64,000 bases of DNA from the NCBI GenBank assembly GCA_040954595.2, contig CM082588.2:5210156-5274155 (forward strand), read 5' to 3'. The notes under the pieces were generated by a model. It saw only the letters and a list, made by a program, of their open reading frames with translations. It ran no database searches and had not been told where the DNA came from. This document shows positions 7,973 to 43,880 of this stretch, piece by piece. The translations under genes and the position numbers were made by a program. The first letter of the stretch is position 1. Each line of letters starts with the position of its first letter. Origin of the DNA: Balanoglossus misakiensis (Eukaryota > Animalia > Hemichordata).

Positions 7973-8109
7973 GGCTCACCGTAGGAAGCGAGCAGAAGTT
8001 GTACGAGGACCTGTTTGAGAACTACAACAGAAAAGTGAGGCCGGTGAAAAACTTCTCCAGTCCCATAACCGTCTACTTCAACATCAAAATCAACCAAATA
8101 TCCGATATG
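7973..8109 (+). CDS. CHRNA9/10-like: Gene A exon 2 (N-terminal helix, LTVGSEQKLYEDLFENYNRKVRPV...QISDM)
   Basis: ttttgtag| acceptor, |gtgagt donor, 137 nt, same length as exon 2 of genes B and C. Confidence 0.93.
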
Positions 8110-8197
8110 GTGAGTACACAGCCTTTCTCAGAGCGATCACAATCTAAGGAGAGTGTTGAACCATAGCCAGGAATCTGGACATCGTTGGGCCAAAACC

Positions 8198-8474
8198 ATT
8201 GTTGGCATTTGATAGGCCATTTCCTAAACACCACGAGACACTGCGAGATCTCGCGTGGCTAGGCAGTTTATTTGGTAAGAGATTCTCATGTGACACACGA
8301 CAAAAACACATGGCCCAAAATGGCACAGAAACTGTTAGAATTTTGTTAAGTCTGCACATATTCTAGTTACATACAAAAATTGACTTGTATTACTTGGCCA
8401 GCAGCCCGCTGCTACGGTAATCAACCAAGTCTCGCGAGATCTCGCAATGATCAGGAATAATCTATTGCCCAACA
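8198..8474. mobile_element. Possible degenerate foldback/MITE-like element in gene A intron 2
   Basis: Inverted arms: tgttgg...ttcct...tgcgagatctcgcg (8242-8255) versus cgcgagatctcgca (8433-8446)...aggaa...ccaaca. No target-site duplication was identified. Confidence 0.35.
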
Positions 8475-10707
8475 CCCACTGACGGAAATGAGACTATAAG
8501 TTTGCAGTATAGTACGAATCTTTGCGATTGCTTTATCATTAGCAAGAAGTCAGCCGTGTTGTGTAAGTGTTATCATAATGTGTAAATGTCATGTTTTACA
8601 TCAACTGGATTATTACTGTGCAAGATTCTGGGAATGATAAACTAACAAAAATCATGGTTAGTTCTTTATGACGTCAGCGGGTGGCATTTTCTCTGATTGG
8701 GGCTGCATATATCTGACCTCGCGTCTTAGATATAGTGCACACTAATGAGCTGACAATCGCTGCAGCTTATAGACAATACAAGATTCACATTTATGACTTC
8801 GTCCTTGTCTCTGCTTCAAGTCTGCTGAGAAATTTGTCAACGACTGGCCAATGGCTCCCGACGCACCACTTCGTTTAACATTTCCTTTGTGTCCAAATCG
8901 TCGAGTTTGTAATCGCATTTCAACATCAGCCTGAGGGGTCGTTACAGGAAATTCAAAGTGTCCGGCATTGTCATTAAGACAATCGGCGGTTCGTCTTATC
9001 TTCCTTTCTGCTGCATCTGCGACTGGATCGTCGTGATGCAAACAGTCCACAGCAAAAAAATAGTTCCACAATTCCACAGAATGCATGCAGCTGCACCGGA
9101 AAAATATCAATCATTTCAGCGCGGATAAATGGAACTTGTAAAGGGCTACCATATAAATCAGTCCATTACAATAACTTTGACCAATAATAACTATTCAGAC
9201 AAAAAAAGAAATTACCAGGGCAAGTGTCACCGCCAAATTCATCATAGCCATTAATGACTATGCGCATAAATACAACATTCGAAAAAGTAGTCCGGGTCTT
9301 GACGTTAAAGTATCACCTGCGCTAAACTACACGTACACAAAGCATGTAGTTTTTTTCTTTCGTGGTCACCAGCAAGTTGAACAATGACCCACCGTTTGAC
9401 GAATACCACTCATGCTATTAAACCAACAAGCCACTTCAAGACGTAGACACCGTAATTGCCTTGCTGACTAGACACTTGAGACACCGATGGGACATTAAGA
9501 TGGCTGGACATAGCCCCCCTGACGCCGAAGAAGCTTGATGTTGCCAAACGTAAACGACATTTTACGTCATTAAGAAAACCACGAGCAAATCGCAACAGAC
9601 GACAATATCTGCCAGGATTTTATTTTATGTTTTCAGACAAGGTTTGACGGCCGCACTAGCCAGAAGTGTCTCTTCACTAATAGTGACACCTAAACAATCC
9701 ATTTGTTTATCTCTCTGAGCGTTCTTGCAGTGATTGTGAAATTAGCCGCCTCTTTTCACACAATTTGCCACGCCCCAATTTACAATTACCGCTTAAAAAT
9801 TACGCCTCCTAAACGTCGGTGTTAAGAGGTCGAATTGCTGCTGTCGTAATCAACCGCACTCAGGTGACCCGTTGTCGATAATATCATCATAGTACAACAA
9901 ATGAAACAGATGACCCAGGAGACATTGTCTGCAATATGTTTTTCAGCCAAATTAACCAATCAGCAAGACTGTCTCAGGCTGTCATGGCAAATATTGCATG
10001 GGTTATATTGCAGCCCAGTTTCAAACTACAGGCTACAAAACAATTCGATGCGTCTTTGTATAGGTTTACCTTTATGTCAAAGTTAAACACCAGCAATACA
10101 GCGGCCGAAGTCGCTACCGAATACACACATCACTCAACCGGGCAGCCAAAATGGTTCACCGCTACATTTGATAAATGGGGTGATTTAGAACATCAGATAA
10201 TGCCTTCTGTCCACGAAACGCAAGGTTTCCAAGGCAACGAATCGGAAGACATATTGGGGGATTATATACTGATTTTTGCTCGTTTATCAAGAAAATAAAA
10301 TTTTAATGCAGTTCCGTTATATTTAAACTATAAATTATTCATTAGAAGGGGTAATGCACCCTGAGACATATTTACCTCATAGTGGAACCCACTGGATCTC
10401 GCCAGTTTTGAAATATTGAAGTTTGCTCTAGGGTACCTTTGAAAACCGATAATGGTAATTGCATTCGTGTCATTTTCCACAATCCACTTTGCAACGTTAA
10501 CGATATATATTCTCCAATAACAGTTATATTGAATTTAATATGTTGGTACTTCCCCACGATCACAGAATTTATGTAGACGCCCATCTTTTTGTCATTAATT
10601 GTCTAAATTTGCTTTTGGAAAAGTAAATATATAGGAAAATATTTTAAACTCTAAACTCAACCTATTTGGAGAGTGAGTTAAGCATATTTTCATTTCTTTC
10701 CATTCAG

Positions 10708-10752
10708 GATGAAAGAAACCAAATCTTGAAGATTAATGCATGGACAGAGCAG
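10708..10752 (+). CDS. CHRNA9/10-like: Gene A exon 3 (DERNQILKINAWTEQ, loop D)
   Basis: ttcag| ... |gtaaag, 45-nt exon typical of nAChR genes. Confidence 0.93.
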
Positions 10753-10912
10753 GTAAAGTTGTATATAAAGTGTTGATCCCATGTCGCTGTATACTTCTTG
10801 TTATTTTGTACAGAGTGACAGTGAACACTGCACTAAACCCTGTCCATATTTCTCTCAATGGATTGGAAAATTGATTAATACTTAATATCCGCTATACTAT
10901 TTACACCATCAG

Positions 10913-11022
10913 GAATGGTTGGATGAGATCTTGGTGTGGGACCCGGACATGTACGAGGGCCTGTCGGAAATCCGAATTCCCTCTTCTGAGTTGTGGCTGC
11001 CAGATATCACATTGTATAATAA
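10913..11022 (+). CDS. CHRNA9/10-like: Gene A exon 4 ([11 protein letters not shown]...[10 protein letters not shown], loop A)
   Basis: catcag| ... |gtaagt, 110 nt, WxPD motif, ends in phase 2. Confidence 0.94.
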
Positions 11023-11407
11023 GTAAGTTTCACTTTACCATCTCTAAGGCACGTGAAATTTAATGACGATGACATATGAAAGTAAAACGAAGCAAAAGGT
11101 TACGGGATGTCGTTCCCTTCACATGTTTATAACGGTCGCCATCTTGAGTGTGTCTTATGTTTCTGATATAGCCAAATGTAAGCGGGAGGGGGCGCTGTGT
11201 ATTAATTTTGAAAGATTCCTCCGCGCAGGCAAACAGTTCACCACATGGGCGGACTATTTGATATCCGGAAGGGGTGGGAGCTGGAACATTTACGAGAATA
11301 AATTGTCAGTCAGCTGTTAAACATGGGAGAGAAATACTGAAAAGACAGCCAACAGTTAGAGTTATTATATTTTCTAGTAACGGTGCATGATTCTATTTTC
11401 TTCGTAG

Positions 11408-11958
11408 TGCTGACACTCACGACTACATGGCAGAAAACAACACGGGGTCAAACGCGGTCGTCGGGTCAGACGGTCACGTGCGTCTCAAATCCAAACCGAC
11501 CCTCCTGAAGAGCACGTGTAAGATCTACGTCAAGTTCTTTCCCTTCGACGTGCAGGCGTGCAAGATGAAGTTCGGCTCGTGGACGTACAACAGCTTCCAG
11601 ATAAACCTCATGAACTCCAGCACCAGGCCGGACCTGCACGAGTACGTCAAGAACGAGCAGTGGGCGCTGGTGCACGCGGAGACCGAGCGGCACGTACTCT
11701 CCTACACGTGCTGCCCCGAGAAATACATCGACGTGACGTTCTCCGTGTGTCTGCGCCGCAAACCCATGTACTACATCTACAACCTGATCATCCCGTGTGT
11801 TCTGCTCTGCGCCTTGGCCTTGACTGGGTTTTTCATGCCGTACAGCGTAGGCGTCGTCAAGGCGTCCATCAGTGTCACCTTGATCTTGTCCCTGACGGTC
11901 TTTCTTCTTCTTGTGGCAGAAATGATGCCGAGGACATCGGAAGATATTCCTCTCATAG
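11408..11958 (+). CDS. CHRNA9/10-like: Gene A exon 5 (loop E, Cys-loop, loops B/F/C, M1, M2)
   Basis: ttcgtag| ... IPLIG|gtacga, 551 nt, lies within ORF 11427..12002, GC-rich codons. Confidence 0.96.
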
Positions 11959-12701
11959 GTACGACATTTTGTTATGTCCAATATCTGTCAGATGGTACAT
12001 AAATTACACTATCGCAACTTGCTGTTCCGGTCGTTTAAAGTTTGTGTTTACCCCAGGCTGGTATATCTGTCATAGGTGTGCTCCCCTACAAATACTCTTT
12101 AAACAGCTAGCATTTGTTATATTTTAGTCAATTTTTGTCAGCGACTGTCACAGTTGCCATTCGTCTTGAGTTTTCATCCAAGCCGTTAAATGCTTCTCTG
12201 TGCATTTCAAATCGATGACACATCTCCTCTCAAACTTCTGCTATCTAGCACGCCCTCTCCTGGTCGGAGTAGAGGGACAATATTATACTTGTCACAGTAT
12301 GACGTCAACGTTGGAGAGTATATTGTATTGGTTTTACAACTCGTAAAATAATTTTATCGTCTATCACCACGATGACAATGAAAATAAAGTCGTTTATCAA
12401 ATTGCTTTAATTCTCAATCCAGTCGTTCAGCGCTGAGAAATCGAACTGTAGATTATAAACTTATCTGAGGTAACATTATCGCTCCCTCGTGACGTTGCCT
12501 GTAACATTTACCTCCAATCTGCGGGAAAAACCTGCAGAGCTGTAGTTAGTGTTCAAAACACGTTCAGCAATTGAGTTCCAATTTCACAACCTTCAGACAT
12601 ACATGTAGGGCTTTTATATTTATTTTATATCTTGCATCTAATATCAAATTTCTAGCTGAATACATTGGTGACATGTTTTGTTTTTTTGGTATTATTTTCA
12701 G

Positions 12702-13297
12702 GGCAATACTACCTGGCCACAATGTGTTTGATTTCCTTGTCGACCGCCATGAACGTGGCGGTGTTGAATGTGCACGGCTGCCGACGCGAAGTGCCCGGGT
12801 GGATTCGCGTCATCGTCATGAGGTACCTGGCATTTGTGGTCTGCATGGGGAAGTGCACGTCGAAGGGCGCCGGGGCGCTGGACAGGGAGGTGCCCGGCAG
12901 AGACGGGCCCATCGTCAACAACCTGAAACACTCGCCCATCCCGCAGCTGCGCGACAACTGCGTCAAGACCGTGGGCGGCCGTCATCACACCATGTCGCTG
13001 CACAGCATGCGCGAGTACTACCACCACGACGACAGCGGCGACGACGGCGAGTGCAAGTTCGGCAAAATCGAACACTACGTGGACCTCATTTTCAAACACC
13101 TCAAGACTGTGCAGCGCAAAAACGACAGGAAGCTGGTGATTCGGGAACAGTGGTGCTGTGTGGCCGCCATCCTCGACAAGGCGCTCATGTACCTTTTCTT
13201 CATGTCAACTTTGGTGACGTCATTAGTGTTACTGCTCCAGGATCCCGGAGAGTCATTTCAAGTGTGCAAAGACAAAATCAGCAGAGGGTTAGAATAG
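12702..13297 (+). CDS. CHRNA9/10-like: Gene A exon 6 (M3, cytoplasmic loop, MA helix, M4, stop)
   Basis: ttttcag|GG CAA TAC TAC, EQWCCVAAILDK MA/M4 motif, TAG at 13295-13297. Confidence 0.95.
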
Positions 13298-15400: not shown

Positions 15401-15599
15401 CTAAAATGTAAAACGAAAACGTCTTAATCGAAATCTGCCTCTGAGAGTGAACCCAGCTCGGAAGCAGGAGTTCAAGACATTTCGTGACGAGAATGAAACT
15501 GGCCATGTGATGTGCATGTGACCCATGTACTAGTATTTGATCAGTTGGTTTCGTTTGTTCGTTATTGCTGTAGTTCCGCTTCCTGTTGCCCGTCAGCGT

Positions 15600-16225
15600 T
15601 CACGATTTGTCCAAATCGTTGTCAATGATATCGTAACACAGTGTCTGTGTGTCTACTCCGGGGGTTTGCAGAAGAAGAGACAGGGTGGTTGACACCGTTG
15701 CTATGGTGAACAAGATGAGTAGAACCTTGTCCAATATGGTGGCCACCTTCACCCATTCCTCCCTCAGGGCAGATTTCCTCTCGTTCTTCCTCTGCACCTC
15801 CTTCAGGTGTCTAAATATCTGCTCCACGTAGTTCCCCATCTTCCCGAACTGACGCTCACCGAGAACACCGTCGTCGATATGGTGAAAATGCCGCGGGGAG
15901 CTCGACGCTTGACTCCCTGTACGCGCGCGGCCGCTCGTTGAGTAGTTCGTCTCCTTCTCGAACCCCGACAGCATGAGACGCCGACCGACGGCGGGCGACG
16001 GGCGGAGTCTGATGATACCCGAGGACTCGTCGCGCGGGATCCTCCTGGGTTTCTTGGGTTCGATGGCGCAGCTACAGTTCATGAAGCAAACAACCGCGAG
16101 GTACTTCAACACCACCACTTTGACCCATCTAGGAACTTGCCTATTGCATACATTAACATTTAAAACGGCGATATTCATTGCAGTGGATACGGAGATAAGA
16201 CACATGGCCGCCAAATAGTACTGAC
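15600..16225 (-). CDS. CHRNA9/10-like: Gene B exon 6b (M3-M4 of distal module, stop)
   Basis: tctctag|GT CAG TAC TAT, EEWVKVATILDK, open to TGA at 15600. Confidence 0.94.
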
Positions 16226-16345
16226 CTAGAGACAACGATGAAAGAAACCAAAACAGTAATATATCAGAATGTACCTGAACACATTGGTAAAGTTTTTAAG
16301 AAAAGACGTTAAAAAAACAAAAACTTACCCTCCCGAGTTACCTAC

Positions 16346-16896
16346 CTATCAAGGGTATTTCCATGGAGGTTCTGGGCATCATTTGGGCAACTAAGAGAAG
16401 AAACACAGTCAGGGACAGAATGAGAGTCACACTGAGGTTGGCTTTGACGACTCCAACGTTGTACGGCATGAAGAAACCGAGGAACGACAGAGCGCAGAGA
16501 AGAATGCAGGGAGTGATCAGGTTGTAGATGTAGTAGAGGGGCTTCCTCCGTATGCAAATATAAAACGTCACATCCGGGTACAGCTCCGGGCAGCAGTCGT
16601 ACTTGACTACGTGCTCGCGCGTGAGGGCCACCTGCAGGTCCCACTGTTCGTTCTTCATGAACGTGGCCACGCCGGGTCCCTCGGCTTGACTGGTCAGGTT
16701 CAGTTGGAGGCTGTGGTACGTCCAGGAGCCGAACTTCATCTTGCACGCCTGCACGTCGAAGGGGAAGTACTTGACGAACACCAGGCATGTGCTCTTCAAA
16801 ATGGTCGGCCTGGAGATGTACATTATGTTACCAGTGTTGTAGACGACACAGTTCGATGCCGAACTGTTTCCCTTGGAGTAGTCACCAGCGGCTGCA
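16346..16896 (-). CDS. CHRNA9/10-like: Gene B exon 5b (Cys-loop CLVFVKYFPFDVQAC, WTYH, YDCCPELY, M1-M2)
   Basis: tttaacag| acceptor, IPLIG|gtaggt donor, 551 nt, starts in phase 2 matching exon 4. Confidence 0.94.
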
Positions 16897-17463
16897 CTGT
16901 TAAATGGTAAGAAGTAAAAGTGATATTATTTAAATATATTGTGTATCATAAGGTTTCCTTTCAATAGGTAAGCAGAGAAATCATGCCGAAAATGTGTAGG
17001 CCAATTCCATGACCCACTGAGTCACGGTGACCTTACATCCTGGTATGTTGTCGGTATGACATCATACCTCAGTCGGGGATACATACAACGATCACCCTTT
17101 TGTAACAGAAAATCCCCACGTTGTGCTCTAGAGTGAGTTACCAATAATATAGTTGACTGTTTCGGAGTTTAAATCCAAGTGGAGAAATATCACTTAGATA
17201 CGACACTTACCATATGCACCATTTTCCCAAGTCTAACGCCCTCGCGCAACCATCATGAATTTGAACTCAAAGCGGGGCCAATGGAGAAACATTCTTGCTA
17301 TGATTGGTCAACTTCTACCGATTGACCTCGCATTGAGTCCAAATTCACGACGGCTGTGCATGTGTCAGGGCGCTAGACGTATTGTTTCTTTCGAAACAAT
17401 TGAAGCAAAATTCTTACAATATTGACGCAAGACTGGCAGCCGTGCAGAGTGGCAACGACACTG

Positions 17464-17469
17464 TTTATT
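17464..17469 (-). terminator. Candidate proximal poly(A) signal ending gene B module a
   Basis: AATAAA on the - strand about 250 nt after the 6a stop, followed by GT-rich sequence. It is the only such hexamer I saw between 6a and 5b. Confidence 0.55.
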
Positions 17470-17721
17470 TAGCACACAACACCCGGGGAAATCTTAAGAG
17501 CATGAATGAAATAATTAATGAGTTGAATACAAGTATTTCTTTGCACTTCCACAAATTACGTTAACACTATGATTACGCTTAATGTGTCTAATTTACATAT
17601 GCTCATACATTCACGGTGTTTTGATACATTATTCTAAATTCTATAACTCGTGTTAACTATTAATTTTGCATGAATGGGAGACGTATATTGTCTTTTATGA
17701 AATGCCGCATACTGGATGCTA

Positions 17722-18338
17722 TCAGGGTATATTGTAAAGTTCTAGCAATTCTGTGTAATTGCCATAAAATGATTCATCGTTTTCAATTCTCCTGTCACAT
17801 AACTTTGTAGTGTCCCCTGGATTCTGCAGTAAGAGAGCCATGGACGTGACGACGGTTGCTAAGATAAACAAAACCATCAAGGTCTTGTCCAAGACGGTGG
17901 CCACTTTCATCCACTCGTTCCTCAGGGCCGCGTTGCGATCGGCCTTCCCTTGTACCATCTTGAGGTGAGTGAATATTTCCGCGACGCTACTCTCGACTTT
18001 GGAGAACCGCGGATCCAGTTCCTCGTTCAGGTTCTCGTGGCAGCTGTGGAACGCGGAATGTCGGACGCCGGAATTGTGGCTGTCCCGGAGACTGTTTCTC
18101 TCGTAGGAGTTGTCATAGGAACGGGCTCTTCTGAAACCGGTGGCGACTGACGAGGGCTGCGCAGAAGTGTTCTTTCTGCAGTGGTTTTCAGCCATGCAGA
18201 CCGCTGCCGCCAAATACTTCATCACGGCCACTTTGATCCACGGTGGAACTTCTCTCCTGCACACGTTGACGTTCAGTACGGCGATGTTCATGGCCGTAGA
18301 TACAGATATCAGCGACATAGCTGCCAAATAGTATTGTC
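17722..18338 (-). CDS. CHRNA9/10-like: Gene B exon 6a (M3-M4 of proximal module, stop)
   Basis: ccactag|GA CAA TAC TAT, NEWMKVATVLDK, TGA at 17722. Confidence 0.94.
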
Positions 18339-18789
18339 CTAGTGGAGACAAAATAGTAAACTCAAAACTAAACCGACATATATCTAAATGGGGTGATAAA
18401 AGAGATAACCTGCTTCGGATATGAAACTGGGTTAATTTAGACTGGTTTTGTCAATGCTATATTACCAATTTATCTTTACAGTCATTGGTGAACGACATTC
18501 TGGTGAAAGTGGCAACATAACATCTACCCAAAGACAATTAAGTGCATCGCTAATTACTGATTCGGAATGGAATGCCCAAATTACGCACGTGACTGGATGT
18601 ATTGGTAATTGGCTTTTCGGACTTAACCAAGGGATCGGTAAGTGAAATTCAAAGAACTCCATTTCATGACAGTAAGGTAACACGCATGCACCACATAACC
18701 CACTATGACACAGGTATTCGTGCTGTTTGTCATTGGCTGGCGTTACCATCTTTCAAAAAGTCAAGATAATGTCCAGAAGGATAAATTAC

Positions 18790-19340
18790 CTATAAGCGGA
18801 ATCTCCTTGGAGGTTCTGGGCATCATCTCGGCCACCAAGAGAAGAAAGACGGTCAGGGAGAGAATCAGAGTGACGCTCAGTGAAGCCTTCACCACCCCAA
18901 CGTTGTACGGCATGAAGAACCCCAGGAACGACAACGCACACAGCAGCACACACGGGATGATCAGGTTGTAGATGTAATACAGGGGCTTTCGCCTGATGCA
19001 TACGTAGAAGGTGATATCCGGGTACCTTTCTGGGCAGCATGGGTAGAATATGATGTGAAGGCGCGCCTTGGCGAACTCCAAATCCCACTGCTCGTTCCGA
19101 ATGAAGTACTGTAAGTCAGGCGTGGTTCTGACCTGGACCATTTTGACCTGGAAGCTGTCGTAGGCCCAGGAGCCGAACTTCATTTTGCACATCTGGACGT
19201 CGAAGGGGAAGTATTTCACGTACACTTGGCACGTGCTCTTCAGTATTGTAGGCTTGGACTTGTAGAAGACGCCGCCTGTCGAATTCACCACACAGTTTGC
19301 TGCCGACTCGCTTTCCTTAGTATAGTCGATGGTATCCGCG
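18790..19340 (-). CDS. CHRNA9/10-like: Gene B exon 5a (Cys-loop CQVYVKYFPFDVQMC, WAYD, YPCCPERY, M1-M2)
   Basis: ttctcattcag| acceptor, IPLIG|gtaatt donor, 551 nt. Confidence 0.95.
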
Positions 19341-20740
19341 CTGAATGAGAAGGAAACAATGACACCTGAGTCGTTGCTGCAAGTTTCATTCAGTTGACGT
19401 TCGGACGGTCAATGAGAGCAGGCGTGTGAATGTTCTCAATGGCACTAACACATCTAGATGGCACAAGTTGTGTTTGGCAAGACGCGTTTCGTTGCTTTGC
19501 TTATGTTAGACGGATAGCGTCCAATTGTAGACCCAAGTCGACCAACAATTCAAATACCGAGCCACTAAGGATGTTAACCGATTTCTAACTTGATAATAAC
19601 AGGGACAGTGAGTGAGTACTATGCCGAGATTAATCTCTATGCTGCAGCATTGTATAAATGTGACGTATTTCAAAATCATCATGCATATTCAATAATACTT
19701 GCGAGTATGTCATGGCCGGGCATCTGCAGATGACATGCTTTGGAAAAGAATGAATTGGCCAAACGACACACAATATGTGAAAACAAAAGAAACACACAAA
19801 CAAGACGCACACCGTTCTAGAAACAACATACAAGTATCCCCCCCCCCCCCCGCTAATCTTCAACTGGATCATGTTCGTTAATGTATGACATGTCAGAGAC
19901 ATAGCGAAAAAGACACCTTTCCGTTTTTGCTGATTGGTAAAATATTTTTAGATATGGGAACCCTTTCATATTAACATATTTTGCTGGGAATATAATGCGA
20001 AATTTGAACTGGGGTTAATGCAATCTACATCAATCTATCAAGAAACACCTATGTATTGAATTTAAACCTTACCTATTTGAGTACCGAACTGATGAGTAAA
20101 CGCGTCGTTGGGGTTAAAATTAGACAAAAAATGTCCCGGTTGTTTTCGGTGAGTGTGCTTGGTTTGTGCTCGAAAAACAAAACTGTATTTGTTAGTATAC
20201 ACGGGGCCTTCTATACGTGTTTCCAGTGAGAACCAGGGTGTGTTTGTTAAACTCTTCGTGTGTGCACCCAGAAAACAGGAAAAACTAAATTGCTGGCGCA
20301 TCAATGAATGTTCATGCTATGACCATGCTGTGTGTTGATGATGGTTCTCGATAAACGAGAGGGTACAGCTCTTGGACATGCTGAAAAGCCATATTTAATC
20401 TTCAAGTTGACACATGCAAGCCTTGTACCCTCATACAAGACCTTGGCTGTATGCAAATCATGCCAATATCGAGTTAAATAAACCAAATATAAAACGGGAT
20501 ATTCATACTCGAGCAATGCAGAAATGAAGCTTTTTTAACATGTAAACCAGACCTAGATATTTTACGCCAACTCATCACTGTAACCTCCAAAGATGCAGTC
20601 GTTAGTTTTGCCATGACTGTTTATAATTAATCGAGAAAGTTTTGCTGACCAACGGAATGTTCTCGTAAAAAAGTAAACGCGCATGTTTATTGTCATACAT
20701 CGATTTGATTTTCAAATCGCATGAAAACATCAATAGGTCC

Positions 20741-20806
<66 letters not shown>
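20741..20806. repeat. (CAA)n microsatellite in gene B intron 4
   Basis: About 22 perfect trinucleotide units. Confidence 0.97.
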
Positions 20807-20872
20807 TATAAATGGCACAATTGCTGTTTTGTAGCATTAGTAAATTAAATGTAACGGAGCGGTCATCCTTAC

Positions 20873-20982
20873 TTGTTATACAGTGTGATATCTGGCATCC
20901 ACAAATCAGACGAGGGAATTCGAATCTGGTCGATTCCGTCATATTCATCCGGATTCCACCTCATCATTTCATCCATCCACGT
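20873..20982 (-). CDS. CHRNA9/10-like: Gene B exon 4 (TWMDEMMRWNP...LWMPDITLYN)
   Basis: gtttcag| ... |gtaagg, 110 nt. Confidence 0.94.
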
Positions 20983-21311
20983 CTGAAACAACGAAGGCTA
21001 AAGTTTGAGTTTAAACGGATAGCATTTCAAGATATCTAGATTATAGATTCTTAGATGGCTCACAATGTGAAATTGTTTCTGCATTCGTAAATGATGTTAA
21101 AAACGAGAGTCCCGGAACTACTTTTATCCTTTAGGAATTTGTTTCGAAACGAAGCACACTCATGACTAATAGATACTGTAGGTGATGAATGGTCACATGC
21201 ATGTAAATGTTTACAACGATCCTCCATTTAAGGAGGCGGCCATTTGCCATTTAACGTAATGAATATTCAGTGGAAAATGTCATCGTCAATGAATCCCGAG
21301 GGAAGGTTTAC

Positions 21312-21356
21312 CTCAGTCGTCCATATATTAGTTTTCAGGACCTGGTTTCGTTCGTC
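21312..21356 (-). CDS. CHRNA9/10-like: Gene B exon 3 (DERNQVLKTNIWTTE)
   Basis: ctttcag| ... |gtaaac, 45 nt. Confidence 0.93.
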
Positions 21357-23435
21357 CTGAAAGTAAAAGAACAGAATCGTTACAGGTTATATACTAAACT
21401 GTATACACATTGAATTTGTGTGTGCTAATTTACTGTGATATGGATCAAATCATACCTACCCATACACCCAGTCACCATGACATATTTAATATGCAGAGAC
21501 GAATATCATATTATAAGTTATTTGTTTTTGTAAGTGAATAGATGGGTGTGTTTAAACACACAGTCATAAATAACCGATGTATATTCATGTATTTTTATTT
21601 AATCTCTAACTTGGGATTTCATGTTCCCAAGGAGCGGAGTTTTAACTGATGTTTATTGGTCATTTGATCATAGTTGTATAACTCACGTAAACGAATACAT
21701 GTAGCTGGAATTATGAGAGCCTTGTGTATTTGACCAGGCAACATATTCATGCGAAAACTGAGATTGCGAGTCTCGGCTTCCCTGGAATTCCATAGTTTAA
21801 ACATCACCGGAGCTCAAAATTGAAAAGTGACCACTTCGCTTTTATACCGATCGTCCTACTATAAGCAGCGACATTTTAGTTCCGTTTGTTTCATGAATAG
21901 CAATATCAAATATTATAATATGTAAGAATTTAAATTGTTAACATTAATGCGCATGGAATTTGCCTTCCTAAAACATCGTCATCGTTCTATGCTTCGCTGA
22001 GGAAAGTGTTCCAAGTAAGACTCATTGCACCTTGAAATCAGTAAATTGATGTTTGATCAACCAACAATCAAAACCACATCCAAACTCATTTTTTTCGCAT
22101 GTTTTATTTAACTCAACGTATTGCACACTATAACCAAACGATACGCCAGACATTCTATTAAGCCGGACATTGATTTTATTCTAAGTGATTTCACAAAATA
22201 ATAAACCAGGGGAAGCGATAATAATATGAATACGACATCTGAGTAGCACATGGCAGATAGTTCGGTATCTAATACCACGCCTGAAGGAACAGATTGAATA
22301 CACTTGTCATCGCCCATGCGATTTGCAATCTCTCTTCACCTCAGACTAAAATGAAGTTATCTGGTTTCTAAAGGAATGACGCGCTTGGAAATGTGAGTGT
22401 GGCGCCCTGTATTATCTAGACAAGAAGTGTATAGTTGTCACCAACAGAGGTGGTGTGTCTTATCTCCAGTCGTGGTTATTGTTCAACTGAGTGGATTTTT
22501 TGAAGAAAAATGCGTTCAGTTGCTGAAAGTATAGATCGTATCAGGACCACTTATCAAAGAACGTATTCTGAATAAGAGGGAACCTTGATGACATAATTTG
22601 TATTCGAGTCTTGAGAATTGGTGCGGCGCTTGTAAATTTGTCACAGTCATATTTGGTGTTTTTACTGTTTCCGCCCGTAAAAATGTCCATAATATGGCAC
22701 ACCCTAAAATCTTGAAACATTATATTGCATTCAGGAGACACGTCATATGTGTTTGGAAACCATAATTCGTCTCCCAGAGAACCATTATGATCGCGAATAA
22801 TTCCCCTTCGTGATAACGTTCCACTCGATACAAACCCTCATTTCTACTGGACAAAGTTTCTTGTGGTTTACCAATCATCTTTTTTTCTATGTGATGAACC
22901 GACACAAGTGGTACTTTGCCAACATAGAATAGAACAAAAATTAATGCCCTGCACTTTTCAGGTGCGATTAGACATTTGCCATTGTCAACATGCTATATGT
23001 ATTATGTATGATATACGTCTTAATTTCAACAGCTGATATGAAATTAAACTCATGTTTTTTTTCAAATCGCTAAAAAGCTTCCTAGAGTTTAACGATACAC
23101 ATTTACTGGTTTGCCTAAATTCATTTATTATTTATTCTCTTTATGATTTTTCCTCGCATTAAGTTTTGTACTAAACCTATTTTAAGGTATAAATAGCCTA
23201 AGATTGGTGATAATGGTCTGTCTAATTGAAGTTTCTACATACACTCGTTTACGACAGTAGCTTTCGATGGCTTTCCCTAATCGATATTGCCTGTCGATGT
23301 TTGCATGCAATATATCCAGCGAAACGTGAAACTAAAGTGCCCTTAAATGGCCTGTCACGTATGCAAATGTAGTAAATTACAATTTAGCGCAACAGCATCA
23401 GTGACTGAACCATGAAAAGGTTGATTTGGACTTAC

Positions 23436-23572
23436 CATATCAGCAATCTGGTTCAGGGCCATGTCAAAGGTCACCCAGATCGGATTGGAGAAATTCTTGA
23501 CTGGACGCACTTTCTTGTTGTAGTTCTTGAACAGATCATCGAAAAGTTTCTGTTCGCTACCAATAGCAGAAA
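23436..23572 (-). CDS. CHRNA9/10-like: Gene B exon 2 (SAIGSEQKLFDDLFKNYNKKVRPV...QIADM)
   Basis: tttacag| ... |gtaagt, 137 nt. Confidence 0.93.
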
Positions 23573-27891: not shown

Positions 27892-27964
27892 CTGGGTTCA
27901 TGGAAAGTATTTGTAACGTCACGAAAATTGAGATCCACGTGGCTTGCCTCAGTAGGATAAAACA

Positions 27965-28001
<37 letters not shown>

Positions 28002-28072
28002 GAGTATTTTAGCTCTGTTGCACGTCTCTGGCCATAGACAGCCTGCGGTCGAAATCTCCACCACCGACCCAT
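27892..28072 (-). CDS. CHRNA9/10-like: Gene B exon 1 (long leader/signal peptide MGRWWRFRPQ...TWISIFVTLQILSMNP-G)
   Basis: Ends CCAG|gtaatg in phase 1, matching exon 2. Clear homology to 60016-60169 (WRFRPQ, TWISIFVTLQILS). The exact start ATG is inferred from the paralogue. Confidence 0.82.
27965..28000 (-). repeat. (ACA)12 coding microsatellite = poly-Thr in gene B leader
   Basis: 12 in-frame ACA codons inside exon 1. Confidence 0.9.
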
Positions 28073-28409: not shown

Positions 28410-28442
28410 GCTATTAATACCGTGATTTGCAATGTTGACGTC
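28410..28442 (-). promoter_or_regulatory. Putative core promoter of gene B (CRE-like GACGTCAA + TATTAATA TATA-like box)
   Basis: 30/33 identical to 60529-60561 at an equivalent distance upstream of the gene C ATG. Confidence 0.65.
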
Positions 28443-32763: not shown

Positions 32764-33386
32764 TCAAGACAGATTTCTCTCCAACTCATTGTTTATGATA
32801 TCGTCGCACAATGTCTGCGTGTTGCCGCTGGGCTTCTGGAGAAGCAGCGAGAGCGTGGTGGTGATGGTGGCGATGCTGAAGAGCACCAGGAGGAGCTTGT
32901 CCAAGATGGTGGCCACCTTCACCCACTCCTCCCGCAGCGCCGCCTTCTTGTCGCTCTTGCGCTGCACCATCTTCAGGTGCTTGAAGATCTGCTCCACGTA
33001 GCGCTCCATCTTGCCGAAGCGGGCGTCGAACTGCGGAGGCCTCTCGCGGTAGCCCCGCAGCGACTTCACCAGTCGCTCTGACGGCGCGGCGTCGTCGTCG
33101 AAGTTGTTCGTCTCCTGCTCGCACACCGACGCCGTGAATCGTCGTCCCACCATGGGAGACGGTTGGAGCCTGATGATCCCCGAAGACTCGCTGCGTGGGA
33201 CCTTCTTGGGTTTTGTCGGTTCGATGGCGCAGCTGCAGTTCATGAAGCAAATCACCGCCAGGTACTTCAACACCAAAACTTGGACCCACCGGGGAACTTC
33301 TCTATTGCATACATTAACATTTAAAACAGCGATGTTCATTGCAGTGGATACAGATATAAGACTCATGGCCGCTAAATAGTACTGAC
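32764..33386 (-). CDS. CHRNA9/10-like: Gene C exon 6b (M3-M4 of distal module, stop)
   Basis: ctttccag|GT CAG TAC TAT, EEWVKVATILDK, TGA at 32764. Confidence 0.94.
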
Positions 33387-33654
33387 CTGGAAAGAAAGAA
33401 GAACGGTATATGCATTAAATTCCCATGAACTCTCCTCATGACGTCAATTCAGTTGACAAAAATAAGCAAATATTTCAAATATGTTCAAATAGCTTTGATG
33501 CAAGTTTTGAGAACATTCCAGAGTATCGCTTAATAACTGGGAGATGACAAACAAACTGTCTTTGTTCGTCTTTGTTTTTTTTTGTGATTTTTCTGAAAAG
33601 TTGCCCGCATTTACAAATGTAAGCTATTGAAAGAACCCCTCTAAAATGTCTCAC

Positions 33655-34205
33655 CTATCAAAGGTATTTCCATGGAGGTTCTGGGCATCATTTGGGCAAC
33701 TAAGAGGAGAAACACAGTCAGGGACAGAATGAGCGTCACACTGAGGTTGGCTTTGACGACTCCAACGTTGTACGGCATGAAGAAACCGAGGAACGACAGA
33801 GCGCAGAGAAGAATGCAGGGAGTGATCAGGTTGTAGATGTAGTAGAGGGGCTTCCTCCGTATGCAGATGTAGAACGTCACATCCGGGTACTTCTCCGGGC
33901 AGCAGTCGTACTTGAGCACGTGCTGGCGGGTGAGGGCGAGCTCCAGGTTCCACTGCTCGTTCTTCATGAAGTTGGTCAAGCTCGGCTGCACGGACACCCT
34001 GGTCAAGTTCAACTGCGTGCTGTGGTACGTCCAGGAGCCGAACTTCATCTTGCACGCCTGCACGTCGAAGGGGAAGTACTTGACGTTCACCAGGCACGTG
34101 CTCTTCAAAATGGTCGGTTTGGACACGTACATAATCTCGCCGTTATTGCTGACGACACAGTTGGAGGCGGAACCGTTTCCTTTAGAGTAGTCACCTGTAT
34201 CAGCG
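33655..34205 (-). CDS. CHRNA9/10-like: Gene C exon 5b (CLVNVKYFPFDVQAC, WTYH, YDCCPEKY, M1-M2)
   Basis: attgtag| acceptor, IPLIG|gtgaga donor, 551 nt. Confidence 0.95.
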
Positions 34206-35410: not shown

Positions 35411-36511
35411 TACAGATAAATATAAAACTAACTAACTAACCAGCTAACTCATATTTTGGAATCTAAAAAAAACATGCTGACCAACACAAATATATTTAAA
35501 TATTTTAACGGTAATGTAGTATGCCCAGGGTTATATTTGTGGCGTGTTACATGCAGTTAGTTTTTTTTCTTATATAATTATTATAAGCAAGTGGGAAAGA
35601 AATAATCTTCGTGTTTGCAGCTATTTATTAAAATATACACGAGTCTATCATTCGTTGAGTAGAAACAAAATATAACGTATTGTTACGGAAGAGCGATTGA
35701 CATTCGAGTTTTGTTGAAAGTCTGTACTCCAAGTCTGAAATAAGCAAAGGTCAGAGAATGTCGATTTTTTGTTTGTTAAAAATAATTGATAGTGGATGGT
35801 TTTCAATTCCGCGGTAATTATTGCTTATGGGTTTTTATTTGTGAAAGCAGATCCAAATCACAGCCTTCCCTATAGTAAGAATTGCGCAAAGATAAGATGC
35901 GCATCCTGTGCGATTTACGCAGCCGCAGATTCCGCGAAATATTTTCAGTCCGTCCCTCTTTTTCGTATAACCTCTTGGAACACATCTTGTGGTTCCGTAG
36001 AACTATAGATGATGTGTTGAGTGTCCAGGAGGCGGGCCTTCATAGGACATGTATAGCATTTAATACTATCCCATCTATTATTTTCGTAATGTCATCTCAA
36101 AGTGGGCGTTATTCGAAAATATACACGCAGACAAGGGTTTTATTTTATTCATTAATACCAAAATCCGATTTACATTACGTCCTTACAATAATTACTCTAA
36201 CCAATAAGAACTGTCAAGGTATTTTTTCTTTCCCCATTCATAAAAGCGCACGTGATGTCGGGCACTTCAAGTTTGAACACCCCGTCGTTAGCCAGGCCAT
36301 TCATTGAATTAAAGTTAGCTGTTATTTCCCAAGGCGGTTTAGAAAAGTTTTGACAGTAGCATCAAAACTGGTTGCAAGTGTAAAATTCTGGGTGTGTGCT
36401 TTAAGTCTTCGCTAGGTCTCTCTCGGTACGTTCTGCATATTTGATATTAGGGGGTGATGTAAGTTTGATATAAGTGTACGGTTTTCTTGGCGTTGTACTT
36501 AAACAAGATGT

Positions 36512-37119
36512 TCACATCAGTTCTGTGTGTTCGCCATAAAAACTTTCGTCTATGATAACCCTGGAGTCACACAGCTTTTTAGCGTCCCCGGGGTTCTGTA
36601 GTAAGAGCGCCATGGAGGTTATGATAGTTGCCATGATGAACAGAAACATCAACGTCTTGTCCAAGATGGTGGCCACTTTCACCCACTCGTCCCTGAGGGC
36701 GGCCTTCCTGTCGTACTTTCTCTGGACGGTCTTCAGGTGCTTGAAGATTTCCGACACGCTGCTCTCCACTTTGGAAAACTGCGAGTCCACTTCATCGTTC
36801 ACGTTGTCGCCGTAGCCGTGGTAGGACGACTGTCTGCCCGACGAGCGGAGGCTGTAGCGGGTGTCCCGCAGACCGTGGCTCTCGTAGGGGGCGTCGTTCG
36901 TGCGGGCTCGCCGGTAACCGATGATGTCAGAAGATGGCGGCATGGATTTCCCGCGCCTGCAGTTGCTGCCTTTCATGCACATCGCCGCCGCCAAATATTT
37001 CATCACAATCATTTTGATCCACGGCGGGACCTCTCTCTTGCAGACGTTGACGTTGAGTACAGCTACGTTCATGGCCGTTGACACAGATATGAGAGACATC
37101 GCTGCCAAATAGTACTGGC
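36512..37119 (-). CDS. CHRNA9/10-like: Gene C exon 6a (M3-M4 of proximal module, stop)
   Basis: cctgtag|GC CAG TAC TAT, DEWVKVATILDK, TGA at 36512. Confidence 0.94.
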
Positions 37120-37409
37120 CTACAGGAACATAAACAACATTTGAAAATCTGTGAGATTTACGTCCCCATTCTGTGGCAAGAACTGGTTTATGTCAGGTAT
37201 ACCCCCATGCTACTAACAACAGGTGAGCACACCATATACCCTAGGTCTTTCCTTGTAATCACTCATGACCGAAAACATGTTGTTCTGGTACAGTATTGTT
37301 GACATTATGCACGCCTGCATCCGGGCATTTCTGGTGTATAACAACACGTACTGCATAATCTAACAGCGAACGACAAAGTAATTCAACCAAATGTCAATGA
37401 CCTCCTTAC

Positions 37410-37960
37410 CTATAAGCGGAATCTCCTTGGAGGTTCTGGGCATCATCTCGGCCACCAAGAGAAGAAAGACAGTCAGGGAGAGAATCAGGGTGACGCTGAG
37501 TGACGCCTTCACCACGCCAACGTTGTACGGCATGAAGAACCCCAGGAACGACAACGCACACAGCAGCACACACGGGATGATCAGGTTGTAGATGTAATAC
37601 AGGGGCTTTCGCCTGATGCATACATAGAAGGTGATATCCGGGTACTTTTCTGGGCAGCACTCGTAGAAAGTGATGTGGCGGCGTGCCTTGGCCGACTCCA
37701 GATCCCACTGCTCGTTGCGGATGAAGTATTGTAGGTCGGGCGTGGCCCTAACCTGGATCATGTTCACCTGGAGACTGTCGTAAGCCCAGGAGCCGAACTT
37801 CATTTTGCACATCTGGACATCGAAGGGGAAGTATTTCACGTACACTTGGCACGTGCTCTTCAGTATTGTAGGCTTGGACTTGTAGAAGACGCCGCCCGTC
37901 GAATTCACCACGCAGTTTGCTGCCGACTCGTTTTCTTTGGCGTAGTCGACTGTATCTGCG
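37410..37960 (-). CDS. CHRNA9/10-like: Gene C exon 5a (CQVYVKYFPFDVQMC, WAYD, YECCPEKY, M1-M2)
   Basis: ccctacag| acceptor, IPLIG|gtaagg donor, 551 nt. Confidence 0.95.
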
Positions 37961-40900
37961 CTGTAGGGGAGTAAATAGACAACAATTAAACGTATTGCTA
38001 TTGCGTGTTTGACGTTTCCAGAAAACGAGGCAAAGTACATCTAATATAATAATACAGGAATACACGAGGATAAGGAAGTTATTGGAGTTTTTGAATGACT
38101 GAATGGTTAGCATTTTGAAGTTGGCTTACGAAGGACACAATTCGAGGGCGATTTTCTCTCTCTATCTCTAACCAGAACAGAGGAAATGTACATGTATCTA
38201 ATTCTCAGTATGAGTGTTCTCATCTTAATTTGTTCGATATTTAGTCGGATGACAAATAAAGGCGCGCAGCTTGACTCGAGATTGTGCGAAGCATGCATCC
38301 ATTTTACAGCAAAGTAAAAGTGCTTGCAGGGTGGAGGAAAAAACTTAAAGAAAGTGAATGCTTTCCAGAGAAATGACATACGGCCAACATGGCGTGTCCA
38401 AGTCTTCGAATCACCATCTGGTGGCGCAATTTTCTCGCGAGTGTCATCCACTGAAAATCTTCAATTTTCCATGGAAATATTGGTTAAATTTACATAGGTG
38501 AACGTGTACATCTATGACGTGAATACAACAGTTGTTTACCCAGGGGTGTATGGGGTCTCGTGCCATAAGGTCAAATGGCCACCGTCGTGTACTAAAGATT
38601 CCCAGGGGCCTGTGGTAGATTTATCTACAGTCGTTCAGGGAGACCATATTTCGATGACTGAAAATCGTTCAAACATCATTGTAGTTTCACACGTCTCCAT
38701 AAAATGAACGATGGCTGTTTGCCATGGTATTGTACATAGAAATATCAATATGGACCGGTTATTGACTTTCATTTTTATGTATACACGTAGATTGTTCACA
38801 AAGTTGTTATTGGCCCTTTCCATCTGCATGTAGATGTAAATACTTTATTTTTAGTGTTAGTGACGTCATAGACCACGTCGATTTTATTACGACGGTGAAT
38901 ATATTTTGTCAGATTCAAACGTAATGTATTTTGTGACCGACTGTGATTAAATTTTTTTCTACGTGTGTGCTATGCCGTGCGATCGCACCCAGCAATGATA
39001 AACGATACACCATTTGAAAAATCATGTTCTTAAAAACGGAGAATGTTGCAGTTCGTGGAAGCAGCACGGATGAAGGGAAATTCAAAATGGTGCTTGCTTG
39101 GAATAATCACGCTTGCGCAGTCAGGTTTTTGCTATGCTGTGTGCAGAAAATGGCGCGTGTGATTCGTGATTATTGAAGGGAATTACACATGTATGTGGGA
39201 CTGAGGTGAAAATATAGAGGCATTTACGAGTGTAAGCTGTGATGAAGCTGAACATCAACATGCGTGGTCGACAGGAAAAGAGCTCAAAGCATGCACAATT
39301 GAGGTTAGCTTTTATAAAAAAACGAGATTGTAATCGGAAAGACTAGGCACTGATAAAAAACACCAGCTGTTATCAAAATGCAATTATGGAGAGGAACGGT
39401 GAAATAAAGAGGGGTTAAAATTACATATTGAATTTATCCCTTACCTATTTCAGTGCCGAGAGGATGAAAATACGTCTTTTGGGAAATTAGAGAAAAAAAT
39501 CTCGACGTTTTCATTATTAGTTGCTAAGTCTTTTGCGTGGCATACACAACGATGTATAGTGGTTAGTATTCGCTGAGATTTTGAAATTAAAAATAAAACG
39601 CCAACAAATCCGTGATTTACGGAAAATACGCTTATCTGACCACTTGAGCATTGTGGAGATTAGGAAAAGGGGATTAAAAGAAGTAAGAGAGAGGTTAACC
39701 ATCCATGCAGCTGTCCTGGCTATATTACAGGGGGAGATTGCGTGACTTGTCGGGGTGAAGTTTTCATGATCAAAGCTAATACATGCAAATGGCGAAGTAA
39801 ATGGGTGATGGAGAAAAATGGAAGATTGCTAGAGAGCTGACGTCATCCTGTTTAGAGAAACCGTGGCATAATGACGAAATGAACGCAACGTAAAACAGCG
39901 CATACTCCAGTGCGAGTGATAGAAAAAAAAGTCATCCGTGACCTTTTACACAAATCAGATACAATCCTATGTCTCCGTGGTACTGGAAAAATACTTTTTA
40001 ATCAAAACGTACAATGTTATGTCATTACTGCGTGTATTGTAGCTGCAGATTGAATCAGTGCGATAACATTGTACAGACAGATGAGTGATAAAGATAAAAT
40101 CTTCCTCTACTATATGTGCTTTTTTTTCTGGATGTAGAGATAACACATTCCTGTATTGTATGTTTTACTGACTCTTTTTCATACCGACTGATCCAAAAAT
40201 AGAGCATATTAGATTTTCTACAAAATTCGCAATTAAAAGCATGTGGACAATCTTTTATGTACATCTTATATAGGCTTATTTCATTTTAGTTTTTTAATGT
40301 TGCTAGCTATCTCTGAAATACAGTGTATTGTGACTCAACAATAATAATAATAATTACATTTCCAAGTTAGTTATATATAAATATATAAATATAATTGTGA
40401 CAACTTACAAGACAAAATACAACTATGTACAAAGGGATATAACATGTTGATATTGTATTTGGCATATGGTGTGGTGACATTGTTATTTTCATGTGTGTTT
40501 CTTTCAGGTGCTTTGGCGCATTGAGGCTGATTGAAAATCACATTGACAAATCCGACTTCATTCCATGTCAACATGTACGGAAATGAACCAAGGACTTTTG
40601 TAAATCCATCCAATTTCACACACCACCAGAATCCGTAAGTTGTCAGCGTTGATAATTTTTCCTCGGTTCTCTGGTCATTTGTTCGACATTCTCCATAGTT
40701 ACAAGATCGAATGTCATTTTCCGCGGCACAGGTATACACTCTACCGAGACATAGACTGATCATTGTGCCTTCTTTCATCCATTTTCAGGTTAAAATGTTA
40801 ATGAGGTTCAAGTGTTGGATTTTCAAATTTGCCATACTTTTATGAAGACTAGAAAAACCAACGGAAAGCTAAGGTAGGCACAGTTTGAAACACTCACGCA

Positions 40901-41278: not shown

Positions 41279-41388
41279 TTGTTGTATAGGGTGATATCTG
41301 GCATCCATAAATCAGACGATGGAATTCGGATCTGGTCTATGCCGTCGTATTCCAGTGGGTTCCATCGCATCATCTCGTCTATCCACGT
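41279..41388 (-). CDS. CHRNA9/10-like: Gene C exon 4 (TWIDEMMRWNP...LWMPDITLYN)
   Basis: actccag| ... |gtaagt, 110 nt. Confidence 0.94.
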
Positions 41389-41685: not shown

Positions 41686-41730
41686 CTCTGTTGTCCAAAT
41701 ATTCGTTTTAAGTACCTGGTTTCGCTCATC
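41686..41730 (-). CDS. CHRNA9/10-like: Gene C exon 3 (DERNQVLKTNIWTTE)
   Basis: attttag| ... |gtacgt, 45 nt, peptide identical to gene B exon 3. Confidence 0.93.
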
Positions 41731-43880
41731 CTAAAATACAAAATAAAACACAGATCCATATTAGTATTTATTTAATAATGAAAATCAGTCTAATTAGTTG
41801 GCGTGTTAACTTCCTCACACACTAAAGGAAGAAAATTTACATAACGAATCCTCTGGGACTAATAGTGGCGATGTAACGCCTGGAGCATATACACATTTAA
41901 TGTGCAGTTAACAATCCTGGCCAACTCTTTTAACCCGTCAACACTGACGGTGACATGTATTAATTGCGTTTGTGCTTGGAGTGAACCCGTTTTTTTTTTA
42001 ATGTTAATAAACAACAAGGATGCTGTTTCTGGTGAAGATGTTTGTGGCATGGGCGATCCTGAAAGAACATTCTAGGAATATTTACATCGCTCCTTCCACT
42101 AAACACAATCTCATCTGACATCAGAATATTGGAATGGGATCGTTTATTGATAACATTGTGCAACGTGAGAGCCATGTGACACACAGACGACCTTTAGGGA
42201 TGCATCAAAAGCAACAGACGTCCAAAAGAGCCTTGAAGGTCAAATAACTATGATGAATAGAACGAACTGTTTTTTCCTGTGTGTGACCAACATATTCGAT
42301 AAACTTCAGACTTTTGTAATCTTTACGATGAACGATGATTTCTGTACGCGTCATAGCTATCGTGACGTTCTGTGCTTGCTATATACCTACGTTATATGTA
42401 AACTTTATAACGGGTCCAGCAAACAGCTTCAACGTGACAGCATTGACAGTGTAACATTTGGCGGCGAGTTCCTTATCTAATATCACGCTTCGAGGCACAC
42501 ATTAAACGCACTTGTCATTTCTCATTCGCTCCCCGTATTTGAGTGAACAACGACGCGAAAACAGAAATAATCCAGTCCAATTGAATTCGTATTGCTAGGG
42601 AATTTCCGCGCCAAGGGCTTTGAAGTACATCGCAACGTTAGATTTAAAATAGACAAAGGCACGACCAGCCCCTCGCAATGGTGTTTTCATTAGACAAGTG
42701 ATTTCCCGAATGAGTTTCGCAATAACACTCAAAAGACCGGGTGCTTTAATATCAACTGTGTGAGATGATTGCCTTTTAGTAGAACGGACAGACCCCAACT
42801 TCACTGTAATGTTGAATTCAGGCTCGTAAATTAGCAGAGATGTACATTATAGACAGATGTTAGCGAGTGCTGTTGATTAATCTTTCTGTTCTGATAAAGC
42901 TCAAGCGAGAAAGACTCGCAAACTCTAGCAGGTTACACAATCAAAAAAATCGACCATACTTGCAGTTTTCACATTAACAAAAACTCGACTTACAAAATGC
43001 GACAGCCATATTACACATATTCACAGATTTGAAGAAAATACAGTCAGTCATATTTATGCGCGCGCACCAATGCAGTACAGCATCATACACTGCAACGCTA
43101 AGCTGACTGTTGGTCTTCTGTGCTTTCTTCATTGTTGTTGTTAAGATAGAGGTATATTATTCGATCCACGCACATTATATTTATTTCCCTTGCGCTGAGA
43201 TAACCGAGTTGTTTCCTATATCACATACTTTATGCTAAACCCCAAAGTACAGGTTGGATAATGGTTGGAGATTTTTCTTAATCACCACAACAACGGCGCA
43301 TCTACGAGCCTGACCCGCTTTCCTGGAAACCGTTCATGAATTATTCAGTCTGCTAACGTTGATTACCTATTAACGAAATCCACGGCGAGACGATTTGAGG
43401 ACATATAGAATCGACTGCAGTGTTAACGGGTTGTTTAATGACATCATTCACGTGCCTCTCCGTGTTTACGTCAATGCGTCATGCGATGGCACTGGCCTAA
43501 TCGATCAGAAACGTCGCGGCGTGCAGGAATTATTGCCGGAAATAACGAGAAACAAAAAATGTCATTAAAATCCCATTCCGGCAGACCACGTCTTGGCCAA
43601 GACCCTCGAAGACTCGTTAAAGACCACCTGCCTCTGTCTTGCCTGCGATCTTTGTTCTTTTGATCTTTGTTCTTTGCTGGCGACTAAACTGCATTGCCGA
43701 TTTGCATATACAAATCAAGTCGCATTCGACAGTATACTGGAAACTGCATAGAAGGAGAATTGCATTATGACGATCTTGCAAATTTCGTTTTGAGATCATA
43801 TACTTATTTTGGCGTGTCATACTTCATCCCCCCCCCCCCTCCATATAGCTAAAGGGTGTTAAGACTTTATTTCTGCTTAC

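Follow-up and report, generated by a model that had tools for sequence, protein, structure and literature searches.

Tandem terminal modules behind a single set of 5′ exons in nicotinic-type receptor genes of an acorn worm

Organization of gene B

The window analyzed here, 64,000 nucleotides (nt) from the acorn worm Balanoglossus misakiensis (GenBank assembly GCA_040954595.2, contig CM082588.2, positions 5,210,156 to 5,274,155), contains no N and carries 3 nicotinic-type receptor genes, designated A, B, and C. We focus on gene B, which lies on the minus strand and consists of one set of 5′ exons followed by 2 terminal modules, a and b; exon 4 is very probably spliced to either of them, which would yield 2 nicotinic-type subunits from one gene. 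All positions given below are those of the window.

The coding part of exon 1 (27892–28072), located by tblastn with the N-terminus of isoform X4 of Ptychodera flava and by its open chain and GT donor, encodes a predicted signal peptide and ends in phase 1; an (AAC)n microsatellite within it (27965–28000, minus strand) encodes a run of 12 threonines in the predicted signal region. Exon 2 (23436–23572) and exon 3 (21312–21356) were mapped by tblastn and a splice-site check, the latter also by alignment of the P. flava orthologue to the alpha7 subunit, and are followed by exon 4 (20873–20982), the sole donor for both modules, which ends in phase 2. The alpha7 alignment places in exon 3 the tryptophan of what we take to be binding loop D and in exon 4 what we take to be loop A. 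Module a consists of exon 5a (18790–19340, 551 nt), encoding loops E, B, F, and C, the Cys-loop, and the membrane segments M1 and M2 (Ser at position 2′, Glu at 20′), and exon 6a (17722–18338), encoding M3, the cytoplasmic loop, M4, and a TGA stop. In module b, exon 5b (16346–16896, 551 nt) carries the same domains as exon 5a (Asn at 2′, Gln at 20′), and exon 6b (15600–16225) again encodes M3, the cytoplasmic loop, M4, and a TGA stop. All of these exons lie on the minus strand. The positions of exon 4 and of both modules proposed in the earlier note all hold, and a check of 19 exons in genes A, B, and C, with AG/GT at every internal junction, bears out the canonical acceptors, 551-nt exons 5, matching phases, open frames, and separate stops described there.

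Exons 1 to 4 remain open into each module, giving chains of 546 and 549 amino acids (aa), 71% of which is supplied by the module, close to the roughly 70% estimated before. The shared part is the first 29%, with loops D and A, and the switched part comprises the remaining binding site, the pore, and the cytoplasmic loop. The spacer of about 825 nt between exon 6a and exon 5b had been described as free of head exons, and tblastn found no copy of exons 2 to 4 there. Retention of both exons 5a and 5b in one transcript shifts the frame and leads to a stop at residue 304 of 672, so that no full protein would combine the two. A hybrid transcript joining exon 5a to exon 6b would stay in frame. Gene B has the organization of a 3′ tandem cassette gene of the unc-49/avr-14 type, in which a single group of 5′ exons precedes at least 2 homologous terminal modules, each with a canonical acceptor in the donor phase, an open frame, and its own stop.

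Neighboring genes A and C

Gene A (60169 to 32764), which lies upstream of gene B and is likewise on the minus strand, repeats this plan of one head with two tails. Its shared exons 1 to 4 (60016–60169, 43881–44017, 41686–41730, and 41279–41388), with a first intron of 16 kb, are followed by module a (36512–37960; exon 5a 37410–37960, exon 6a 36512–37119) and module b (32764–34205; exon 5b 33655–34205, exon 6b 32764–33386). Gene C (7973–13297, plus strand; exons 2 to 6 mapped) is a paralogue with a single module. In the window, tblastn detects exons 2, 3, and 4 three times each, once per gene, and exons 5 and 6 five times each.

Exon 5 of the a modules is 93% identical between genes A and B and that of the b modules 86%, versus 71% to 75% between a and b. 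The part of exon 5 encoding M1 and M2 is homogenized between genes A and B, a with a (18790–19340 and 37410–37960) and b with b (16346–16896 and 33655–34205), and not between a and b: synonymous differences amount to 5/56 and 3/54 sites, compared with 36.5/59 in exons 2 to 4, and the identical runs of 107 and 131 nt were equaled by 10 and 0 of 2,000 shuffles. This pattern suggests gene conversion that respects module identity.

Genes A and B also share conserved stretches outside the coding parts. A 33-nt element, 91% identical and a candidate promoter element, lies about 340 to 390 nt upstream of the start codon (28410–28442 in gene B and 60529–60561 in gene A, minus strand), and a non-coding element in intron 2 (approximately 22243–22320 and 42451–42528, minus strand) is 73% identical over 78 nt.

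Family assignment and relatives

The encoded proteins contain the Pfam domains PF02931 and PF02932, and all 5 modules of the window have the features of a nicotinic alpha subunit, namely the Cys-loop, the loop B tryptophan, and the loop C tyrosine with the vicinal cysteine pair. Their closest named vertebrate matches are mostly alpha9 and alpha10 subunits (32% to 44% identity), and the best match of solved structure is alpha7. The designation of gene B as alpha9/10-type does not stand as a statement of orthology and is a label of similarity only. In a quick tree of 48 rows, the genes belong to a clade of their own (20 rows, SH-aLRT support 100), the named members of which are all from hemichordates or echinoderms and which falls outside the clade of vertebrate alpha9/alpha10 and amphioxus CHRNA9 (support 100); the tree does not settle its sister group.

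The best matches to exon 5a come from P. flava (92%), Glandiceps talaboti (83%), and Saccoglossus kowalevskii (80%). For the P. flava orthologue of gene A, RefSeq already encodes the two-tail arrangement in 4 isoforms (XP_070568558-61, X1 to X4): X3 and X4 are identical over their first 152 residues and continue with module b or a, respectively, and X1 and X2, which begin with another first exon, are identical over 166 residues and likewise continue with module b (X1) or a (X2). The alternative N-terminus of X1 and X2 is a cysteine-rich module. Many members of the clade (P0121, P0122, P0123, P0003, P0013, P0020, P0014, P0015, P0028, and P0050) carry a six-cysteine module of about 35 residues ahead of the binding domain, for which 4 of the 7 such proteins scanned gave sub-threshold Pfam matches to cysteine-rich domains of the TNF-receptor type (best E-value 0.008). 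The cysteine-rich first exon of P. flava was found in the window neither by tblastn nor by a hidden Markov model (9 of 10 sequences; best E-value 0.16), and it could be located outside the window or consist of several small exons.

Further searches for b-type proteins added little. The search for short proteins spanning the join of exons 4 and 5b returned 26 matches, the only close one of which (P0125, 112 aa) begins within exon 5b and does not span it. With the full b isoform as query, no further full-length b-type protein was present among the best 120 of 1,074 matches or the best 150 of 16,815. Exon 5b was also compared with metagenomes, where the 80 loci kept of 112 confirmed were all 27% to 57% identical, with none from close kin, and were not used.

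Age of the two modules

In a tree of 36 rows built on the module region, the 6 a modules form one clade (support 98/98) and the 6 b modules another (100/98), gene C is sister to both together, and within each of the 2 clades Saccoglossus falls outside Glandiceps, which falls outside the A and B copies. Approximately unbiased (AU) tests on an 18-row tree, for which the groups were named after the first tree had been seen, spoke against separate duplications in the individual genes. Clades uniting the a and b modules of one gene were rejected in all 3 cases, namely gene B of the window, Saccoglossus, and Glandiceps (p 1e-5, 2e-5, and 2e-4); in a fourth test, holding together the 2 a modules of the window was not rejected (p 0.15).

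The separate and well-supported a and b clades across 3 acorn-worm families indicate that the layout is old and no assembly error. Since each clade spans the families, exons 5 and 6 would have been duplicated in tandem before the 3 families split, and the whole two-tailed gene would have been duplicated later into genes A and B. Acorn-worm families split a few hundred million years ago.

Use of module b

Several lines of evidence bear on whether module b is used and from where it is entered. Between genes A and B, the ratio of nonsynonymous to synonymous substitution (dN/dS) is 0.29 for exon 5b and 0.26 for exon 6b, compared with 0.13 for exon 5a and 0.27 for exon 6a, and the modules are under purifying selection. 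The first methionine of exon 5b is codon 25, and the 24 codons before it differ between the 2 genes at 4, 3, and 13 sites of codon positions 1, 2, and 3, with 18 of the 24 residues identical. Such third-position-biased change ahead of the first methionine fits translation entering from exon 4, unlike what a headless gene would show. The claim that exon 4 is joined to either module is supported by this constraint, by conservation of both modules, and by the P. flava isoforms, in which both joins appear. We infer the join of exon 4 to exon 5b in gene B from these comparisons of sequence. A look-up of RNA runs for positions 15500–21400 listed none, a result that weighs neither for nor against the join.

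Some points weigh against this conclusion. The 4 P. flava isoforms, which presumably rest on aligned transcripts as RefSeq isoforms do, belong to the orthologue of gene A. At 3 of the 4 loci in relatives, module b is a separate headless RefSeq gene (P. flava gene B, 367 aa; Glandiceps, 371 aa; Saccoglossus, 342 aa) accompanied by a model that contains module a, so that the join of exon 4 to module b is annotated at only 1 of the 4, and may be rare or unsupported at the others, including the orthologue of gene B. We further infer the adjacency of the a and b models in the relatives from contigs of equal length and, in the case of Saccoglossus, from accessions that follow one another. Finally, with the M1 and M2 coding part homogenized between genes A and B, even a copy that is little used could have stayed intact.

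The last of these points belongs to an alternative in which the choice is real in gene A, and in which module b of gene B, left over from the A/B duplication and preserved in part by gene conversion, is silent or seldom used. The P. flava orthologue of gene B is indeed annotated with module a only, and the low synonymous divergence and long identical runs in the M1 and M2 part are as this account would have them. Outside the homogenized part, however, comparison of module b of gene B with that of gene A still gives a dN/dS of about 0.27. The module also clusters with the intact module b of P. flava gene B (support 98/90), and its acceptor is on par with the others in pyrimidine content (15 of 20), all of which makes such a leftover improbable.

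Marginally less probable still is that module b forms its own transcription unit, driven by an internal promoter and encoding a headless protein or one with an unrecognized first exon. The headless annotation of 3 of the 4 b modules in relatives agrees with this possibility, and a conserved element in intron 4 with a donor-like AG/GTAAGG in both genes (see below) could be a short first exon. The element of gene A, however, has an in-frame stop 2 codons ahead of the donor-like site; upstream of the 5b acceptor of gene B, only 9 in-frame codons are open and contain no ATG; the 33-nt element found upstream of both exons 1 has no match in the spacers; the stretch of exon 5b ahead of its first methionine is under coding constraint; and P. 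flava isoforms X1 and X3 have exon 4 joined to module b. An assembly collapse that deleted exons 1 to 4 of a separate gene is hardly credible, for although collapses do happen in tandem clusters of close paralogues such as this one, the layout occurs twice in the window, which has no N, and 4 b modules in 3 other species are annotated without a head of their own.

Splicing of exon 4 to either module therefore remains the reading that we adopt for gene B, and the 3 headless genes named “alpha-9-like” in RefSeq are probably the second tails of their neighbors.

Pore, binding site, and predicted ion selectivity

A comparison of 6 a modules with 6 b modules revealed 4 fixed differences in 130 columns, 2 of them in M1 and the others at positions 2′ and 20′ of M2. 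Position 2′ is Ser in 6/6 a modules and Asn in 6/6 b modules, and position 20′ is Glu in 6/6 a modules and Gln in 6/6 b modules. Gln at M2 20′ is also found in P0152, P0153, and P0154, members of another hemichordate paralogue group of the same clade.

Both isoforms depart from the usual nicotinic pore just ahead of M2. A glutamate at position −1′ is considered the hallmark of cation selectivity, with a Pro-Ala motif in its place in anion-selective nicotinic receptors (PMC4055736); selectivity is described as being set by the M1–M2 loop, and position 20 is cited as raising cation conductance (PMC4562599; both papers as far as the parts drawn on here extend). Position −1′ is occupied by Val, not Glu, throughout the clade, including the 4 modules of genes A and B and that of gene C, and the M1–M2 linker of the clade is one residue longer and ends in Gly-Val-Val before the lysine at 0′. 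M2 was matched 331 times in 318 of 386 proteins, a set biased toward relatives of the query; Glu stands at −1′ in 288 of these matches and Val in 39, of which 38 belong to the clade.

Given that the alpha-type binding residues are kept and the −1′ glutamate is lost, isoforms a and b are likely not classical cation channels. The pore also lacks the Pro-Ala anion motif of the Lymnaea and Schistosoma (SmACC) type, and with neither Glu nor Pro-Ala in the clade, altered selectivity is a prediction. In isoform b, where the 20′ glutamate is missing as well, M2 would be devoid of an acidic ring, and the splice choice would accordingly retune ion permeation.

How the terminal module could be chosen

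In the default model, 3′ end formation after exon 6a competes with splicing to the 5b acceptor: transcripts cut and polyadenylated after exon 6a would give isoform a, and those in which exon 4 is joined first to the 5b acceptor would lose module a, together with its poly(A) site, as an intron. Competition of this kind has been described for 3′ cassette genes of the fly (PMC6191721, in the parts used here). A candidate proximal poly(A) signal, the AATAAA noted in the spacer before, is present there (17469–17464, minus strand) and is the only such hexamer in the spacer of gene B; this hexamer and another at 14640 are known as sequence only. By rough arithmetic, one AATAAA per 825 AT-rich bases is about what chance would give, and we accord it little weight; it is compatible with alternative polyadenylation and is no evidence for it. 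About 100 nt downstream of the hexamer, the spacer contains a 39-nt inverted repeat (17244–17359) that is 79% complementary, with a loop of 38 nt.

A conserved non-coding element in intron 4 (20054–20198 in gene B and 39426–39569 in gene A, minus strand) is a candidate docking site. It is 71% identical between the 2 genes over 152 nt (E-value 1e-13), has the donor-like AG/GTAAGG in both, and contains a 12-mer core that occurs at these 2 places only. In gene A, a 16-nt stretch of the spacer (35735–35750, minus strand) could pair ungapped with the core of the element (39438–39453); none of 200 shuffles gave as good a helix in this test, one of 14 region tests, nor did any of a further 60, and it ranks 2 of 1,664 ungapped helices between intron 4 and the spacer. 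Over 8.1 kb of gene B, the matching 16-mer likewise has its best partner in the spacer, as the core does in gene A; the spacer of gene B makes up 10% of that length, and 7 of 150 shuffles were as good. The weak candidate selector thus located (16947–16975, minus strand) complements the core of the element about 50 to 80 nt upstream of the 5b acceptor.

If the intron-4 element paired with the spacer, module a would be left in a loop. Counting against such pairing, the helix of gene B is absent from the 12 best of 316 ungapped helices between intron 4 and the spacer, and pairing of the whole element is no better than that of shuffles (40/60 in gene B and 12/60 in gene A); the partner sites in the 2 spacers could not be aligned with each other by MAFFT or blastn. 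We regard looping of module a by such pairing as a tentative proposal and, on the evidence of 2 paralogues, an unlikely one.

A broader scenario, more speculative and less likely again, would have acorn worms and echinoderms share an undescribed family of acetylcholine-gated channels that lost the glutamate of the cation filter independently and that pass anions or both charges. In acorn worms, an RNA-pairing-guided splice within one gene, older than the split of the families, would then pick a pore with one acidic ring or none, and so change the sign or strength of cholinergic signaling.

Comparison with known systems

The arrangement is shared with unc-49, avr-14, and the cassette genes of the fly, so the layout is of a known kind. 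In the literature searched (mostly open-access), no paper was found on this locus, on the pore of the clade, or on such a layout in a nicotinic receptor, and PMC6896357 mentions neither hemichordates nor echinoderms nor splicing; the earlier note, which knew of no described case among alpha9/10-type receptors, agrees with that search. The nematode precedents that it named for unc-49 and avr-14 are confirmed in published papers (PMC8841521, PMC11296113, and PMC3144221, as far as the parts consulted go).

In Caenorhabditis elegans unc-49, a common N-terminus is spliced to one of 3 tandem C-termini (PMC8841521 and PMC11296113, same proviso), giving UNC-49A, B, and C, of which UNC-49B and C co-assemble, as the a and b isoforms of the acorn worm might too. 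That gene is a nematode GABA-receptor gene with 3 copies, whereas the gene considered here is a nicotinic-type deuterostome gene with 2 copies and has itself been duplicated whole. The nematode gene avr-14 (gbr-2) encodes a glutamate-gated chloride channel: like the acorn worm gene, it has 2 alternative C-terminal halves behind one N-terminus, kept across a whole animal group, and its 2 subunits, AVR-14A and B, have a common binding domain and different channels (PMC3144221, in part). In the acorn worm, by contrast, the switch lies inside the binding domain, so that the Cys-loop and loops B, C, E, and F change as well.

In the Drosophila genes PGRP-LC, CG42235, and pip, splicing and alternative polyadenylation jointly select among duplicated terminal cassettes, and docking-site/selector pairing, in which a 5′ splice site is masked in a helix, has been shown by mutation (PMC6191721, in the parts available). 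These genes encode no ion channels, and the pairing described here is a weak computational lead from 2 paralogues. With respect to the pore, the nearest parallel is offered by the anion-selective receptors of Lymnaea and Schistosoma (SmACC), which, like the acorn worm clade, have lost the M1–M2 glutamate (PMC4055736, in part), and which have Pro-Ala where the acorn worm clade has Val-Val in a linker one residue longer, its selectivity being predicted only.

If both isoforms are made, one-head, many-tails production of subunits also evolved in the nicotinic branch and in a deuterostome, and it has persisted since the divergence of the acorn-worm families. As a natural experiment on positions 2′ and 20′ of the pore, set in a clade that lacks the −1′ glutamate, isoforms a and b would then bear on the basis of charge selectivity and on the question of whether inhibitory nicotinic receptors exist in invertebrate deuterostomes. 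Within nicotinic receptors themselves, the insect alpha6 subunit exchanges single internal exons, compared with the two-exon terminal module with its own stop described here. Its alternative splicing is likewise old and conserved (PMC1919356, in part). The acorn worm gene differs from the known cases in belonging to the nicotinic branch and to a deuterostome, in switching within the binding domain, in having come through a duplication of the whole gene, and in its unusual pore.

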